A stretch of 25,892 bases of DNA, taken from a virus. Lineage: Duplodnaviria > Heunggongvirae > Uroviricota > Caudoviricetes. Shown here piece after piece: positions 1,893 through 25,892 of the stretch. The notes under the pieces are model-generated. The model had not been told where the DNA came from. It saw nothing but the letters and a program-made list of their open reading frames with translations, and searched no databases. The DNA is taken from IMG/VR virus record IMGVR_UViG_2734482557_000001, one strand, 5' to 3'. Numbering within the stretch: position 1 is the stretch's first letter; every line of letters starts with the position of its first letter. A program made the position numbers and the translations under genes.

Positions 1893-5573
<3,681 letters not shown>

Positions 5574-15172: not shown

Positions 15173-15422
15173 NNNNNNNNNNNNNNNNNNNNNNNNNNNN
15201 NNNNNNNNNNNNNNNNNNNNNNNNNNNNNNNNNNNNNNNNNNNNNNNNNNNNNNNNNNNNNNNNNNNNNNNNNNNNNNNNNNNNNNNNNNNNNNNNNNNN
15301 NNNNNNNNNNNNNNNNNNNNNNNNNNNNNNNNNNNNNNNNNNNNNNNNNNNNNNNNNNNNNNNNNNNNNNNNNNNNNNNNNNNNNNNNNNNNNNNNNNNN
15401 NNNNNNNNNNNNNNNNNNNNNN
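15173..15422. other. assembly gap (250 N) spanning the L 3' end and K 5' end
   Basis: Run of N; flanks are in recognisable L and K frames. Confidence 0.99.
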
Positions 15423-16669: not shown

Positions 16670-19600
16670 ATGGGTAAAGGCAGCAGTAAGGGGCATACCC
16701 CGCGCGAAGCGAAGGACAACCTGAAGTCCACGCAGCTGCTGAGTGTGATCGATGCCATCAGCGAAGGGCCGGTTGAAGGTCCGGTGGATGGATTAAAAAG
16801 CGTGCTGCTGAACAGTACGCCGGTGCTGGACAATGAGGGGAATACCAACATCTCCGGCGTCACGGTGGTGTTCCGGGCAGGTGAGCAGGAGCAGTCACCG
16901 CCGGAGGGGTTTGAATCCTCCGGCTCCGAGACGGTGCTGGGTACGGAAGTGAAATATGACACGCCGATCACCCGGACCATCACGTCGGCAAACATCGACC
17001 GTCTGCGCTTTACCTTCGGTGTACAGGCACTGGTGGAAACCACCTCAAAGGGAGACAGGAATCCGTCGGAAGTCCGCCTGCTGGTTCAGATACAGCGTAA
17101 CGGTGGCTGGGTGACGGAAAAAGACATCACCATTAAGGGCAAAACCACCTCGCAGTATCTGGTCTCGGTGNNNNNNNNNNNNNNNNNNNNNNNNNNNNNN
17201 NNNNNNNNNNNNNNNNNNNNNNNNNNNNNNNNNNNNNNNNNNNNNNNNNNNNNNNNNNNNNNNNNNNNNNNNNNNNNNNNNNNNNNNNNNNNNNNNNNNN
17301 NNNNNNNNNNNNNNNNNNNNNNNNNNNNNNNNNNNNNNNNNNNNNNNNNNNNNNNNNNNNNNNNNNNNNNNNNNNNNNNNNNNNNNNNNNNNNNNNNNNN
17401 NNNNNNNNNNNNNGGGTGACGGAAAAAGACATCACCATTAAGGGCAAAACCACCTCGCAGTATCTGGCCTCGGTGGTGGTGGATAACCTGCCGCCGCGCC
17501 CGTTTAATATCCGGATGCGCAGAATGACGCCGGACAGCACCACAGACCAGCTGCAGAACAAAACGCTCTGGTCGTCATACACCGAAATCATCGATGTGAA
17601 ACAGTGCTACCCGAACACGGCACTGGTCGGCGTACAGGTGGATTCGGAGCAGTTCGGCAGCCAGCAGGTGAGCCGTAATTATCATCTTCGCGGGCGCATT
17701 CTGCAGGTGCCGTCGAACTATAATCCGCAGACGCGGCAATACAGCGGTATCTGGGACGGAACGTTAAAACCGGCATACAGCAACAACATGGCCTGGTGTC
17801 TGTGGGATATGCTGACCCATCCGCGCTATGGCATGGGGAAACGTCTTGGTGCGGCAGATGTGGATAAATGGGCGCTGTATGTCATCGGCCAGTACTGTGA
17901 CCAGNNNNNNNNNNNNNNNNNNNNNNNNNNNNNNNNNNNNNNNNNNNNNNNNNNNNNNNNNNNNNNNNNNNNNNNNNNNNNNNNNNNNNNNNNNNNNNNN
18001 NNNNNNNNNNNNNNNNNNNNNNNNNNNNNNNNNNNNNNNNNNNNNNNNNNNNNNNNNNNNNNNNNNNNNNNNNNNNNNNNNNNNNNNNNNNNNNNNNNNN
18101 NNNNNNNNNNNNNNNNNNNNNNNNNNNNNNNNNNNNNNNNNNNNNNNNNNNNNNNNNNNNNNNNNNNNNNNNNNNNNNNNNNNNNNNNNNNNNNNNNNNN
18201 NNNNNNACTGGATTGACCCGGATAACGGCTGGGAGACGGCGACAGAGCTTGTGGAGGATACGCAGGCCATTGTCCGTTACGGTCGTAACGTCACGAAGAT
18301 GGATGCCTTTGGCTGTACCAGCCGGGGGCAGGCACACCGCGCCGGGCTGTGGCTGATTAAAACGGAACTGCTGGAGACGCAGACCGTGGATTTCAGCGTG
18401 GGTGCTGAAGGGCTTCGTCATGTACCGGGCGATGTCATTGAAATCTGCGATGATGACTATGCCGGTATCCGCACCGGCGGGCGCGTGCTGGCGGTGAACA
18501 GCCAGACCCGGACGCTGACGCTCGACCGTGAAATCACGCTGCCATCCTCCGGCACCACGCTGATAAGCCTGGTTGACGGGCAGGGGAATCCGGTCAGCGT
18601 GGAGGTCCAGTCCGTCACCGACGGCGTGAAGGTAAAAGTGAGCCGTGTTCCTGACGGTGTTGCTGAATACAGCGTGTGGGGGCTGAAGCTGCCGACGCTG
18701 CACCAGCGATTGTTCCGCTGCGTGNNNNNNNNNNNNNNNNNNNNNNNNNNNNNNNNNNNNNNNNNNNNNNNNNNNNNNNNNNNNNNNNNNNNNNNNNNNN
18801 NNNNNNNNNNNNNNNNNNNNNNNNNNNNNNNNNNNNNNNNNNNNNNNNNNNNNNNNNNNNNNNNNNNNNNNNNNNNNNNNNNNNNNNNNNNNNNNNNNNN
18901 NNNNNNNNNNNNNNNNNNNNNNNNNNNNNNNNNNNNNNNNNNNNNNNNNNNNNNNNNNNNNNNNNNNNNNNNNNNNNNNNNNNNNNNNNNNNNNNNNNNN
19001 NNNNNNNNNNNNNNNNNNNNNNNNNNNNNNGCTGACAGTCCGGGCAGTAAATGCGTGGGGGCAGCAGGGCGATCCGGCGTCGGTATCGTTCCGGATTGCC
19101 GCACCGGCAGCGCTGTCGCGGATTGAGCTGACGCCGGGCTATTTTCAGATAACCGCCACGCCGCATCTTGCGGTTTATGATCCGACGGTACAGTTTGAGT
19201 TCTGGTTCTCGGAAAAGCGGATTGCGGATATCAGGCAGGTTGAAACCACAGCACGCTATCTTGGCACGGCGCTGTACTGGATAGCCGCCAGTATCAATAT
19301 CAAACCGGGCCATGATTATTACTTTTATATCCGCAGTGTGAACACCGTTGGCAAATCGGCATTCGTGGAGGCTGTTGGTCAGCCGAGTGATGATGCATCC
19401 GGTTATCTGGATTTTTTCAAAGGCGAGATAGGGAAAACCCATCTGGCTCAGGAGCTGTGGACGCAGATTGATAACGGTCAGCTTGCGCCTGACCTGGCTG
19501 AAATCAGGACGTCCATTACGGATGTCAGCAATGAAATCACGCAGACCGTCAATAAGAAACTGGAAGACCAGAGTGCGGCAATTCAGCAGATACAGAAGGT

Positions 19601-20532: not shown

Positions 20533-21339
20533 ATGCGTAAAGTTTGTGCAGCCATTTTGTCCGCAGCCATTTGCCTGGCCGTATCCGGTGCGCCTGCATG
20601 GGCGTCTGAACATCAGTCCACGCTGAGCGCGGGGTATCTTCATGCCCGGACCAACGTTCCCGGCAGTGATGATCTGAACGGGATTAACGTGAAATACCGT
20701 TATGAGTTTACGGATACGCTGGGGCTGGTGACGTCATTCAGCTATGCAGGAGACAAGAATCGCCAGCTGACCCGTTACAGCGATACCCGCTGGCATGAAG
20801 ATTCCGTTCGTAACCGCTGGTTCAGCGTAATGGCGGGGCCGTCTGTGCGCGTGAATGAATGGTTCAGCGCGTATGCGATGGCGGGTGTGGCTTACAGCCG
20901 TGTGTCGACTTTCTCCGGGGATTATCTCCGCGTAACTGACAACAAGGGGAAAACGCACGACGTGCTGACCGGAAGTGATGACGGTCGCCACAGCAACACG
21001 TCTCTGGCGTGGGGAGCTGGCGTGCAGTTTAACCCGACCGAATCCGTGGCCATTGATATTGCTTATGAAGGCNNNNNNNNNNNNNNNNNNNNNNNNNNNN
21101 NNNNNNNNNNNNNNNNNNNNNNNNNNNNNNNNNNNNNNNNNNNNNNNNNNNNNNNNNNNNNNNNNNNNNNNNNNNNNNNNNNNNNNNNNNNNNNNNNNNN
21201 NNNNNNNNNNNNNNNNNNNNNNNNNNNNNNNNNNNNNNNNNNNNNNNNNNNNNNNNNNNNNNNNNNNNNNNNNNNNNNNNNNNNNNNNNNNNNNNNNNNN
21301 NNNNNNNNNNNNNNNNNNNNNNTCGGTTATAAATTCTGA
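20533..21339 (+). CDS. lom: Lom outer-membrane protein (Ail/Lom/PagC family), interrupted by an N-run gap
   Basis: MRKVCAAILSAAICLAVSGAPAWASEHQSTLSAGYLHARTNVPGSDDLNGINVKYRYEFTDTLGLVTSFSYAGDKNRQ... matches lambda Lom including the signal peptide. After the gap the frame ends GYKF-stop as in Lom. GAGAGG Shine-Dalgarno upstream. Confidence 0.9.
   Translation: MRKVCAAILSAAICLAVSGAPAWASEHQSTLSAGYLHARTNVPGSDDLNGINVKYRYEFTDTLGLVTSFSYAGDKNRQLTRYSDTRWHEDSVRNRWFSVMAGPSVRVNEWFSAYAMAGVAYSRVSTFSGDYLRVTDNKGKTHDVLTGSDDGRHSNTSLAWGAGVQFNPTESVAIDIAYEGXXXXXXXXXXXXXXXXXXXXXXXXXXXXXXXXXXXXXXXXXXXXXXXXXXXXXXXXXXXXXXXXXXXXXXXXXXXXXXXXXXXXGYKF
21073..21322. other. assembly gap (250 N) in lom
   Basis: Run of N; a lambda-like Lom needs only about 45-60 nt here, so the N length is not the true length. 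Confidence 0.99.
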
Positions 21340-21365
21340 TTAGCCAGGTAACACAGTGTTATGAC

Positions 21366-21392
21366 AGCCCGCCGGTTCAGGCGGGCTTTTTT
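21366..21392 (+). terminator. intrinsic terminator downstream of lom
   Basis: Perfect 8-bp stem AGCCCGCC-GGTTCA-GGCGGGCT followed by TTTTTT. Confidence 0.8.
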
Positions 21393-21403
21393 GTGGGGTG
21401 AAT

Positions 21404-24400
21404 ATGGCAGTAAAGATTTCAGGTGTACTGAAAGACGGCACAGGAAAACCGGTACAGAACTGCACAATCCAGCTGAAAGCAAAACGTAACAGCACCACGG
21501 TGGTGGTGAACACGCTGGCCTCAGAAAATCCGGATGAAGCCGGGCGTTACAGCATGGACGTTGAGTACGGTCAGTACAGCGTTATTCTGTTGGTGGAAGG
21601 ATTCCCGCCGTCACATGCCGGGACCATCACCGTGTATGAAGATTCCCGACCCGGTACGCTGAATGATTTTCTCGGTGCCATGACGGAGGATGATGCCCGT
21701 CCGGAGGCACTGCGCCGTTTTGAGCTGATGGTGGAAGAGGTGGCGCGTAACGCGTCCGCGGTGGCACAGAACACGGCAGCCGCGAAGAAATCAGCCAGCG
21801 ATGCCAGCACATCAGCCCGTGAGGCGGCAACCCATGCGACTGATGCTGCAGATTCAGCACGTGCAGCCAGCACGTCAGCCGGACAGGCCGCTTCGTCGGC
21901 TCAGTCAGCGTCTTCCAGCGCAGGAACGGCATCAACAAAGGCCACTGAAGCCTCAAAAAGTGCTGCCGCTGCAGAGTCCTCAAAAAGCGCGGCGGCTACC
22001 AGTGCCGGTGCGGCGAAAACGTTAGAAACGAATGCGGCAGCGTCACAACAATCAGCAGCCACTTCTGCATCCACCGCGACCACGAAAGCGTCAGAAGCTG
22101 CCACCTCAGCCCGGGATGCGTCGGCTTCAAAAGAGGCGGCAAAATCATCAGAAACGAACGCATCATCAAGCGCCAGTAGCGCAGCTTCCTCGGCGACGGC
22201 GGCTGCAAATTCTGCGAAGGCGGCCAAAACGTCCGAGACGAACGCCAGGTCTTCTGAAACGGCAGCGGGACAGAGTGCCTCAGCTGCGGCAGGCTCAAAA
22301 ACNNNNNNNNNNNNNNNNNNNNNNNNNNNNNNNNNNNNNNNNNNNNNNNNNNNNNNNNNNNNNNNNNNNNNNNNNNNNNNNNNNNNNNNNNNNNNNNNNN
22401 NNNNNNNNNNNNNNNNNNNNNNNNNNNNNNNNNNNNNNNNNNNNNNNNNNNNNNNNNNNNNNNNNNNNNNNNNNNNNNNNNNNNNNNNNNNNNNNNNNNN
22501 NNNNNNNNNNNNNNNNNNNNNNNNNNNNNNNNNNNNNNNNNNNNNNNNNNNNGGCGTCATCGGCATCATCGGCGTCTGCTTCAAAAGATGAGGCGACCAG
22601 ACAGGCGTCAGCAGCGAAGGGCAGCGCCACGACGGCATCCACGAAGGCGACAGAGGCTGCTGGTAGTGCGACGGCAGCAGCTCAGAGCAAAAGTACGGCG
22701 GAATCTGCAGCAACGCGCGCTGAGACAGCGGCAAAACGGGCAGAGGATATTGCATCCGCCGTGGCGCTTGAGGATGCGAGCACGACGAAAAAGGGGATAG
22801 TACAGCTCAGTAGTGCGACTAACAGCACTTCCGAGTCACTGGCGGCAACACCAAAAGCCGTTAAGGCCGCGTATGACCTGGCTAACGGGAAATACACCGC
22901 ACAGGATGCAACGACAGCACAGAAAGGGATAATCCAGCTAAGCAGCGCGACCAACAGCACGTCTGAAACGCTGGCGGCAACGCCAAAGGCAGTAAAAGCA
23001 GCCAATGACAATGCTGAGAAACGTCTGCAGAAAGATCAGAACGGTGCGGATATCCCTGGCAAAGACACCTTTACGAAAAATATTGGTGCCTGCCGTGCCT
23101 TCGGTGGGTCAGTAAGCACAACAACAGGAAACTGGACGACTGCACAGTTTATCGAGTGGCTGGATTCTCAGGGAGCATTTAACCATCCATACTGGATGTG
23201 CAAGGGTTCCTGGTCTTATGGCAATAATAAAATCATTACTGATACTGGCTGCGGTAATATTCATCTCGCCGGAGCTGTCATTGAAGTAATGGGGATAAAG
23301 TCAGCGATGACGATCCGCATTACCACTCCGACCACATCCAGCGGTGGCGGAACAACCAACGCCCAGTTTACCTATATTAATCACGGAACAGATTATTCAC
23401 CTGGCTGGCGAAGGGACTATAACTCCAGAAATAAGCCAACGGCATCAGAGATCGGGGCGCTACCGTCAGGTGGAACAGCAGTATCATCAGTTAATCTGGC
23501 TTCAAAAGGTCGGGTAGCCGCGCTGACAGACAATACGCAGGGGGCAGCAGGTCTTGAGTTATACGAGGTGTATAACAACGGATATCCAACAGCGTATGGA
23601 AATATCATTCACCTGAAAGGGATGACAGCCGTTGGCGAAGGTGAGTTACTCATCGGCTGGAGTGGTACAAGCGGTGCTCATGCTCCGGCATTTATTCGTT
23701 CACGACGGGATACGACCGACGCAAACTGGTCGCCGTGGGCGCAGCTTTACACCTCGGCTCATCCTCCTGCAGAGTTTTATCCAGTCGGTGCACCAATCCC
23801 GTGGCCATCAGATACCGTTCCGTCTGGTTATGCCCTGATGCAGGGGCAGACTTTTGACAAATCTGCTTACCCGAAACTTGCAGCCGCTTATCCGTCAGGC
23901 GTGATCCCTGATATGCGTGGCTGGACGATTAAGGGCAAGCCCGCCAGTGGTCGTGCCGTATTGTCTCAGGAACAGGATGGCATTAAATCGCACACCCACA
24001 GCGCCAGCGCATCCAGTACGGATTTGGGGACGAAAACCACATCGTCGTTTGATTACGGCACTAAATCCACGAATAACACCGGGGCGCATACGCACAGTCT
24101 GAGCGGCTCTACAAGTTCAGCTGGGGCCCACCAACATAGTCAGACTGGGCCCAGAACGAATAGCGGGAGTCAACCTACTGGAATGTTTCCGGCAGGGAGT
24201 ACTCAAGTTAGCGGGACTAATCAGGTTGGTATCAGTGGCTCATTAACCAGTGGCACCTCCCAATGGGTAGGTAAATCATCTTCAGAAGGAAACCATACAC
24301 ACTCACTGTCCGGCACAGCAGCATCTGCGGGTGCACACGCGCATACTGTCGGTATTGGTGCTCATACGCACTCTGTTGCGATTGGTTCACATGGACACAC

Positions 24401-24479
24401 CATCACCGTTAACGCTGCTGGTAACGCGGAAAACACCGTCAAAAACATCGCATTTAACTATATTGTGAGGCTCGCATAA
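21404..24479 (+). CDS. stf: side tail fibre protein Stf (mosaic; interrupted by an N-run gap inside an Ala/Ser-rich repeat region)
   Basis: N-terminus [60 protein letters not shown]... matches lambda Stf. C-terminus ...[61 protein letters not shown] matches the lambda Stf tip. The frame is open on both sides of the gap; continuity across it cannot be verified. Confidence 0.88.
22303..22552. other. assembly gap (250 N) in the Ala/Ser-rich repeat region of stf
   Basis: Run of N inside low-complexity, GC-rich repetitive coding sequence. Confidence 0.99.
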
Positions 24480-25060
24480 TGGCATTCAGAATGAGTGAAC
24501 AAGCACGGACCATAAAAATTTATAACCTGCTGGCCGGAACTAATGAATTTATTGGTGAAGGTGACGCATATATTCCGCCTCATACAGGTCTGCCTGCAAA
24601 CAGTACCGATATTGCACCGCCAGATATTCCGGCTGGTTTCGTGGCTGTTTTCAACAGTGATGAGTCATCGTGGCATCTCGTTGAAGATCATCGGGGTAAA
24701 ACGGTTTATGACGTGGCTTCCGGCGACGCGTTATTTATTTCTGAACTCGGCTCATTACCGGAAAATGTCACCTGGTTATCCCCGGAAGGGGAGTTTCAGA
24801 AGTGGAACGGCACAGCCTGGGTGAAGGATACGGAAGCAGAAAAACTGTTCCGGATCCGGGAGGCGGAAGAAACAAAAAACAGCCTGATGCAGGTAGCCAG
24901 TGAGCATATAGCGCCGCTTCAGGATGCTGTGGATCTGGAGATCGCAACGGAGAAAGAAACCTTGTTGCTGGAAGCTTGGAAAAAGTATCGGGTGTTGCTG
25001 AACCGTGTTGATACATCAACTGCACCGGATATTGAATGGCCAGTAGCACCTATAGGGTAA
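24479..25060 (+). CDS. tfa: tail fibre assembly chaperone Tfa
   Basis: 193 aa [74 protein letters not shown]...; the ATG overlaps the stf stop by one nucleotide (TAATG). Confidence 0.95.
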
Positions 25061-25145
25061 ATTCGTAATGATTACCTAAATACGTTATTCTTTTGTTAAA
25101 AAAGTGATTTTGCTATAGGTAGGGAGTATGTTCTTGGATTAAGAA

Positions 25146-25176
25146 TAAAAAATCGCCATGAAAGAGCTTCATGGCG
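25146..25176 (-). terminator. strong intrinsic terminator for leftward (minus-strand) transcription
   Basis: Perfect 9-bp stem CGCCATGAA / TTCATGGCG with a 5-nt loop at 25154..25176; read on the minus strand it is followed by a T-run (plus-strand AAAAAA at 25146..25153). Confidence 0.65.
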
Positions 25177-25809
25177 AGTACATAAACGTACAAAATGTGA
25201 TGAAAGTAGAGTGGCGTAAGCCACTATATTAAGATATGACAATAGCGAAGAAAAGTAAATAACATTTTATGGACGTTTAATTGTTAATTATAAAAACTAG
25301 AGTGCCCGATATTGTTTATCTTGCTTTAAAATAATGTACTCAAACCAAATTTTTGAGCTAAAAGCTCAAATAATATAAATGCAATAATAATGTTTAATAA
25401 GACAATTAGCTTGCTTTGTATTTTCATTTCGGAATACTGTTAAGTAACTTTGATGACCCTAACAATAGATCGGAATTTTCTTAGAGTCAATGGTCACTGT
25501 TTTTGCTTGCAAAGCAAATGTTTTGGTGGTTATAAGTCGTCTTAATATAGTCACGCATGCAACTTGTTCCATGCGGAGATTAAAGATTGGAATATAACGC
25601 GAAGATGGAATTAAATTACATTTGCAATAATTAATTTATTATTACTCAATAATTACCGATATTATTATTGTAAATTAATCATTAGAATGCAAAAAGAAAT
25701 GTAACGGCAAAATAAGAGGACGATAGCTGAGAAAAAAGCGTGCTTTCCCAATCTGGGGCAAATCACGTCTGAATGACACCTGAAAACAGGTGGTAGCCTC
25801 AAGAAGGCT

Positions 25810-25892
25810 GGTGATGCTGCCAACTTACTGATTTAGTGTATGATGGTGTTTTTGAGGTGCTCCAGTGGCTTCTGTTTCTATCAGCTGTCCCT
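25810..25892 (+). mobile_element. IS1 left end (terminal inverted repeat GGTGATGCTGCCAACTTACTGAT...), truncated by the window edge
   Basis: The 83 nt from 25810 to the window end match the IS1 left terminus as I recall it, including the start of insA. Confidence 0.85.
25864..25892 (+). CDS. insA: IS1 InsA, 5' fragment (GTG start; M-A-S-V-S-I-S-C-P...), continues beyond the window
   Basis: GTG GCT TCT GTT TCT ATC AGC TGT CCC at the expected offset from the IS1 inverted repeat. Confidence 0.7.

Follow-up and report, generated by a model that had tools for sequence, protein, structure and literature searches.

The window analysed here is a stretch of 25,892 nucleotides (nt) from a virus of the class Caudoviricetes (IMG/VR record IMGVR_UViG_2734482557_000001). 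Close to its 3' end it carries a gene for a side tail fibre, stf, the two ends of which resemble the Stf of phage lambda, with a cysteine-containing middle part of another kind and a run of 250 N inside the coding sequence. The locus raises the question of what kind of fibre is encoded, whether the gene is intact and whether the exchanged part concerns the receptor or the shaft. An earlier reading of the letters alone, called here the sequence-only reading, had described an intact-looking mosaic fibre with a lambda N-terminus and swapped receptor or shaft specificity. The explanation that we favour, with a probability of about 85 %, is that the gene is the stf of a lambda-like prophage, accompanied by its chaperone gene tfa, and represents a recombinant, common allele built from known modules. 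The gene is a mosaic and probably functional.

The gene order around stf is J, lom, stf, tfa, i.e. that of a lambda-like late operon, and the placement of stf after J and lom with tfa directly 3' is typical of lambda-type Stf. The gene starts with ATG at 21404, seven bases downstream of a Shine-Dalgarno-like GGGGTGA, and ends with TAA at 24477-24479; the ATG of tfa overlaps this stop codon by 1 nt. Tfa is 92.7 % identical to lambda Tfa and its gene is intact in the window. A chaperone gene directly 3' of the fibre gene is also a feature of the gp37/Stf tip family. Pfam matches over the two genes were phage_tail_N, Phage_fiber_2 (two copies), Collar, Phage_fiber and Caudo_TAP, whereas the NCBIfam search gave no family for Stf or Tfa.

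Domain-by-domain comparison agreed with a mosaic fibre carrying a lambda N-terminus. Residues are numbered here on the full-length protein of 1027 amino acids, a residue after the gap being the residue of the C-terminal piece in the window plus 386. Residues 1-91 match chain residues 1-94 of PDB entry 9E7M, the cryo-electron microscopy structure of Ur-lambda (E 1e-52), and phage_tail_N (PF08400) was matched by residues 1-134 over profile positions 1-134 of 134 (E 1.5e-72). The lambda-like part, earlier put at about 130 residues, proved to be longer, since all 299 residues preceding the gap are 87 % identical to lambda. In Ur-lambda the StfN residues form a dodecameric collar at the gpV-gpM junction (PMC12617516), and by analogy the N-terminal domain of the present fibre would dock on the tail. 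The following region is Ala/Ser-rich, as had been noticed, with 38 % alanine, 24 % serine and 12.5 % threonine over residues 135-461; this rod corresponds to the proximal coiled coil of lambda (residues 102-393), which it exceeds in length by about 100 residues.

The Ur-lambda Stf has been mapped into StfN (1-91), a linker (92-101), the proximal coiled coil (102-393), a hinge (394-422) and then the distal coiled coil (423-525), and it ends in a gp37-like receptor-binding domain that binds OmpC (PMC12617516). In the alignment to lambda Stf the hinge and the hexameric distal coiled coil (394-525) did not align with the window protein; their place is taken by a second Phage_fiber_2 repeat followed by two globular domains, here named modules A and B. 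The non-lambda stretch, previously delimited as 23040-23760, does fail to align with lambda Stf but is wider, approximately 22902-23777, and includes the second repeat. Because the cysteine-containing central domain replaces exactly the hinge and the distal coiled coil, it constitutes a swap of the shaft and not of the receptor tip. Hinge and distal coiled coil are a feature of lambda's own fibre, not of the whole Stf family.

The left junction of the exchanged part lies at ATPKAVK of the first fibre repeat and the right one just before GAPIPWPSD of the collar. Pfam PF03406 (Phage_fiber_2) was found in two stretches (E 1.2e-37), and the fibre repeats are visible in the DNA as a 107-nt direct repeat of 74 % identity. 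Working chimeras of lambda Stf, used in engineered lambda delivery particles, were fused at R393 and S528 (PMC11338833), and the two natural junctions essentially coincide with these points; it therefore appears that the A-B cassette is tolerated in nature in place of the hinge and distal rod of lambda. The 3' half of stf is recombinant also at the DNA level relative to its closest relatives, nt 1-1572 of the C-terminal piece (window 22553-24124) being 98.5 % identical to the ST70/PhiR68_2 type. Sequence comparison supports the mosaic nature of stf.

Module A is an already solved domain, that of the phage Mu S' protein (PDB 8JU3), to which it is 76 % identical. The region of repeat 2 is identical to Mu Sc in 29 of 45 positions and matches residues 97-173 of 8JU3. 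As in Mu S'-type fibres, module A comes after a fibre repeat of the constant part, and the fibre repeat, the NGADIP linker and module A of the window protein follow one another in the same order as the end of Sc and the beginning of Sv' in the G(-) form of Mu (gp52, 8JU3). Invertible-segment fibres of P7 and D6 align to 84-96 % of the central region, with an identity of 65-71 %. Unlike Mu S', the window has neither the S'-type C-terminal tip nor the U' chaperone, its C-terminus being gp37-like and its chaperone lambda Tfa-like, and it lacks the 32-residue unit that lies between the two NGADIP motifs of Mu and spans the G-segment boundary. Deletion or recombination between the NGADIP motifs may have fixed the S'-type module in a non-invertible gene, to judge from this alignment. 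One 26-nt gix-like sequence, which we take to be that of Mu, had no match in the window with up to 3 mismatches, other site variants not being searched, and no invertase gene lies between tfa and the IS1 end, where there is no open reading frame (ORF) of 50 residues or more.

Three cysteines are present in the central region, not four as counted in the sequence-only reading: Cys566, Cys602 and Cys619, with codons at 23091, 23199 and 23250. Among 110 module A sequences these positions are cysteine in 88, 105 and 108, respectively, and all three cysteines are missing from two. In the same set, module positions 56 and 79 (window 23205-23207 and 23274-23276) covary, with G/A in 59 homologues, C/C in 45 and other combinations in six; the window carries the G/A form. 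The covariation hints at spatial contact and at an extra cysteine pair in one subgroup, but could simply come from shared ancestry. Conservation of module A as a whole is high, with 27 invariant columns among 34 diverse sequences.

Module B is the sole part of stf without a structural or functional anchor. It matches phrog_3299, 22609 and 37852, and gave no match in a PDB sequence search; a profile search returned only matches of E ~1, to the WSxWS strand of fibronectin type III (FN3) domains of leptin receptors, which are at most a hint of an FN3-like sandwich and no evidence for it. BLASTP against a Mu S'-type protein recovered only the motif RSxRD...W..YT (E 0.013), and module B is not detectably homologous to the second domain of Mu. 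Pfam Gp34_trimer scored 18.4 bits at the junction of A and B, short of the cut-off of 27. Structure prediction of the central domain, proposed earlier as a check, was informative for module B only in part: the predicted local distance difference test (pLDDT) value from AlphaFold 2 was 57-75 in context and 38 for the module alone, with an alignment of 10 sequences, and the latter model was discarded as unusable.

The arrangement of the two modules was counted among the 120 best database relatives. Module A alone was found in 80 of them, A-B as in the window in 21, B-A in 14, B alone in three and A-A in two. Owing to this variation in order and copy number, the modules behave as independent, shufflable beads of the shaft. 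In two partial proteins of Escherichia coli (P0019 and P0020), which are natural deletion variants, module A is cut after LAGAVIEV and AALTDNTQ of module B follows at once; these are either defective copies or a sign that internal losses are tolerated in the A/B region.

The C-terminal tip matches the T4 gp37 structure 2XGF (E 2e-82) with all seven HxH motifs aligned, and the collar matches the same structure. The gp37/Stf tip family is characterised by a collar, a needle in which HxH motifs recur and a C-terminal strand that is conserved, and the tip of the window protein shows this succession. The lambda-like GxHxH tip had been estimated at about 170 residues; its motifs do match those of lambda and T4 gp37, but it amounts to about 233 residues from 23778 and is broken at 24138-24287 by a non-lambda loop, which the sequence-only reading had missed. 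This head loop of 50 residues, situated between HxH motifs 3 and 4, is identical to lambda in only 14 of 38 aligned residues, and identical DNA is present in no more than 25 of 5426 complete E. coli genomes. Divergence within the gp37/Stf family is concentrated in the region responsible for the specificity of T4 for OmpC and lipopolysaccharide (LPS) (PMC9659904). As the head loop is non-lambda, receptor specificity may differ from that of lambda, and it would do so via the loop and not via the cysteine-containing domain; by analogy with the family the loop would bind OmpC and/or LPS. Of the swapped "receptor or shaft specificity" suggested before, the shaft swap holds, whereas the cysteine-containing domain is no tip swap and the tip remains of the lambda/T4 gp37 type. 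The conservation of the motifs also predicts iron binding by the HxH triplets in the trimer.

Compared with the known systems, the window resembles Ur-lambda Stf and Tfa in the position of the gene between J-lom and tfa, the docking domain, the chaperone, the Ala/Ser coiled coil, one Phage_fiber_2 repeat, the collar, the HxH needle and the C-terminus. The Ur-lambda fibre differs in its length of 774 residues and in having an unrelated sequence where the head loop stands here; lambda Stf moreover contains an additional FDYGTKTTGS repeat and one more unit with an HxH motif (GIGAHQHPVV). The likeness to T4 gp37 comprises the collar, the needle, the seven HxH motifs, the C-terminal strand, the chaperone gene directly 3' and the divergence in the specificity loop, but the head loop of the window is longer and only distantly related, and its chaperone is of the lambda Tfa type (Caudo_TAP), unlike that of the T4 gp38 subgroup. 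In the Qin remnant of E. coli K-12 (stfQ, beside nohA) the sequence from module B onward is 99.6-100 % identical at the nucleotide level over the 261-264 nt that were compared. Only a truncated gene is left in K-12, whereas in the window the N-terminal docking domain and the rod are present in full.

Both parts of stf are open, as had been noted, but as written they are in different frames (frame 2 from 21404, frame 0 from 22554), and the 250-nt gap taken literally introduces a +1 shift. Relatives served to find out how much real sequence such N runs stand for. The run of 250 N in lom corresponds to 43 nt in five relatives, the run of 306 N in J to 344 nt in four relatives and the run of 250 N in stf to 258 nt in five relatives. 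Since the run lengths are not faithful to the real lengths, the frame mismatch in stf is uninformative, and no argument from reading frames is valid across any of the N runs. Altogether J, lom and stf contain six such runs (15173-15422, 17171-17413, 17905-18206, 18725-19030, 21073-21322 and 22303-22552).

Complete genomes for comparison were found through the exact Tfa protein of the window, and eight were fetched. Four of them match the flanks of the gap fully, at 980 of 980 nt (21323-22302) and 3340 of 3340 nt (22553-25892), and the other four at 99.88-99.97 %. In all eight stf is a single intact ORF of 1027 residues; in the genomes with identical flanks the gap holds 258 nt, and positions 3817-4074 of one comparison locus (L008) fill it in frame. 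The window alone cannot show the intact-looking fibre that had been proposed; its intactness is supported by proxy, from the identical-flank genomes. An exact look-up of the 1027-residue protein in a protein collection gave no match, although the gene is called in the eight genomes. Tandem and direct repeat searches revealed only weak DNA repetition in the rod, and the assembly gap is therefore not explained by long exact repeats. An ORF of 284 residues on the minus strand (21901-22755), opposite the Ala/Ser-coding region, runs through the gap; this ORF is no gene but results from alanine codons rich in GC together with the run of N.

Table 1 Positions of stf, the domains of its product and the adjoining features in the window
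Feature	Position	Strand	Residues	Basis or remark
Terminator-like hairpin and T-run	21366-21397	+		between lom and stf, just 5' of the stf start
stf, side tail fibre	21404-22302 and 22553-24479	+		halves separated by 250 N
StfN tail-docking domain	21404-21676	+	1-91	84/90 identical to lambda Stf
Ala/Ser/Thr-rich proximal coiled-coil rod, before the gap	21806-22302	+	135-299	composition
Gap in stf	22303-22552		300-386	250 N; 258 nt of Ala/Ser rod in identical-flank genomes
Ala/Ser rod, end	22553-22778	+	387-461	
Phage_fiber_2 repeat 1	22779-22901	+	462-502	common to lambda 358-394, 29/37 identical
Phage_fiber_2 repeat 2 and linker	22902-23039	+	503-548	not in lambda; resembles the end of Mu Sc
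Module A, Cys-containing globular shaft domain of Mu S' type	23040-23429	+	549-678	
Module B, beta-rich shaft domain	23430-23777	+	679-794	ends in the motif starting FIRSRRD
Collar domain	23778-23930	+	795-845	Pfam Collar, E 3.6e-12; 44/51 identical to lambda 530-580
Proximal needle	23931-24137	+	846-914	HxH motifs 1-3 (866/868, 898/900, 912/914)
Variable head loop	24138-24287	+	915-964	presumed receptor-contacting tip
Distal needle	24288-24479	+	965-1027 and stop	HxH motifs 4-7, conserved C-terminus; 57/72 identical to lambda
tfa, tail fibre assembly chaperone	24479-25060	+	193 in total	Pfam Caudo_TAP, E 4.6e-44

A working scheme for the fibre can be proposed by homology. Three chains would form one fibre, with residues 1-91 docking at the junction of the tail tube and tip. 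The Ala/Ser-rich coiled coil (approximately residues 102-461) would make the proximal rod, followed by the two fibre repeats, and the two globular shaft modules would occupy the place of the lambda hinge and distal coiled coil. The collar and needle of T4 gp37 type, presumably held by seven HxH metal sites and folded at the tip by Tfa, would expose the variable loop of 50 residues to a receptor in the outer membrane, which is probably either the LPS core or a porin, e.g. OmpC. Fast, reversible first attachment would then be provided by this fibre and committed contact by the tip fibre J. The gene itself probably arose by recombination at ATPKAVK and GAPIPWPSD among fibre genes of lambdoid, Mu/P1/P7-type and T-even-type phages.

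Several points weigh against this explanation. In the window stf has no continuous ORF, with 250 N inside and frames that differ as written. Trimer formation, metal binding and docking are predicted from homologues, and receptor contact of this particular allele is likewise a prediction by analogy. Among isolated phages the head loop is matched best by gp37 of T-even phages, with 56 % identity, so that it has no close relative in a characterised phage. Given the pLDDT values above, any fold or role assigned to module B would be tentative. Finally, module A is strongly conserved in phages of Photorhabdus, Xenorhabdus, Acinetobacter, Vibrio and Aeromonas, and such conservation across distant hosts could mean a role beyond that of a spacer.

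The last point bears on the possibility that modules A and/or B form a second, lateral binding site, e.g. for O-antigen or another surface glycan, giving a fibre with two specificities. Such a site would fit the high conservation of module A in phages of distant hosts, and papers citing the Mu S' construct that contains the module place this construct in a fibre whose recognition of LPS was investigated. In Mu S', however, module A sits proximal to a separate C-terminal tip domain, and the shuffling of A and B in order and copy number is that of structural beads; we regard a second specificity as unlikely. A shade less likely still is the broader proposal of either an accessory surface-glycan site in A/B or a fold of module B not yet seen in solved fibres; if true, the fibre would read two receptors, one laterally via A/B and one distally via the gp37-like loop. 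In this reading a disulfide between the conserved Cys602 and Cys619 might lock the domain after the virion has left the cell. An enzymatic role of the central domain, as a depolymerase or esterase degrading a surface polymer in the manner of tailspikes, is hardly credible, since the domain matched no enzyme family of Pfam or NCBIfam and, among structures, only the Mu fibre domain matched it significantly.

It is also improbable, to much the same degree as an accessory glycan site, that stf is a pseudogene, or the prophage defective in this genome, with the lesion hidden in the gap and no fibre made. The +1 difference between the frames as written, the IS1 at the contig end only 750 nt past tfa and an 83-nt deletion in lom of the closest complete genomes, where lom is called short, would all suit this reading. 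Nevertheless, the N runs demonstrably do not reflect true lengths, all eight complete genomes found via the exact Tfa have the intact stf ORF, and tfa is intact in the window.

This allele is common. The whole of stf was covered to at least 80 % in 624 of the 5426 complete E. coli genomes, and the central region in 800. The isolated phages PhiR68_2, PhiR26_1, PhiR42_1 and mEp460_ev081 and the Salmonella phage SPF_0923 carry an stf with 97-98 % identity across the part of the DNA that aligns, 86 % of the query, and their annotation names the product side tail fibre or tail fibre. The exact Tfa of the window was present on at least 1000 contigs named as Shigella sonnei, S. flexneri or E. coli. 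The allele is already public and annotated as a tail fibre and is not a new kind of fibre, and the novelty implied by the sequence-only reading was not borne out, as module A had been solved in Mu S' and the allele is widespread. That phage tail fibres exchange domains has belonged to textbook knowledge since the early 1990s. For these reasons the locus carries little weight as a discovery.

The immediate surroundings of stf show features of their own. The stem of the hairpin upstream of stf (21366-21387) consists of 8 pairs, 7 of them G-C, and is followed by TTTTTGTGGG. The lom gene as written looks 268 residues long, in comparison to 199 in relatives. In the complete genomes with stf and tfa 100 % identical to those of the window, the 3' end of lom has lost 83 nt with respect to PhiR68_2 and SE11 (L008 2813-2837), and lom is called short there (135-160 residues). 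The window keeps at 21010-21072 at least 63 nt of the deleted stretch, and its lom therefore differs from that of these otherwise identical relatives.

Downstream, 750 nt of AT-rich DNA (25061-25810, GC 29-34 %) separate tfa from IS1, with no ORF of at least 50 residues and no gene called in the matching complete genomes. The window ends 82 nt into the IS1 inverted repeat (25811-25892, GGTGATGCTGCCAACTTACTGAT...), which is the probable reason for the contig break. The junction region between tfa and IS1 was covered to at least 80 % in 513 E. coli genomes. In several close relatives a serine invertase of the PinQ/PinR type (pinQ) is encoded on the opposite strand just past tfa (L001 6745-7335, L005 6618-7208, L006 6053-6643), and the Shigella-type genomes and the window have the AT-rich stretch and IS1 where those relatives carry the invertase.

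The coincidence of the natural junctions with the engineered fusion points is of modest practical value for the design of lambda delivery particles. Of similar modest value is the rare variant of the head loop, a candidate determinant of altered specificity for a porin or LPS in E. coli and Shigella.

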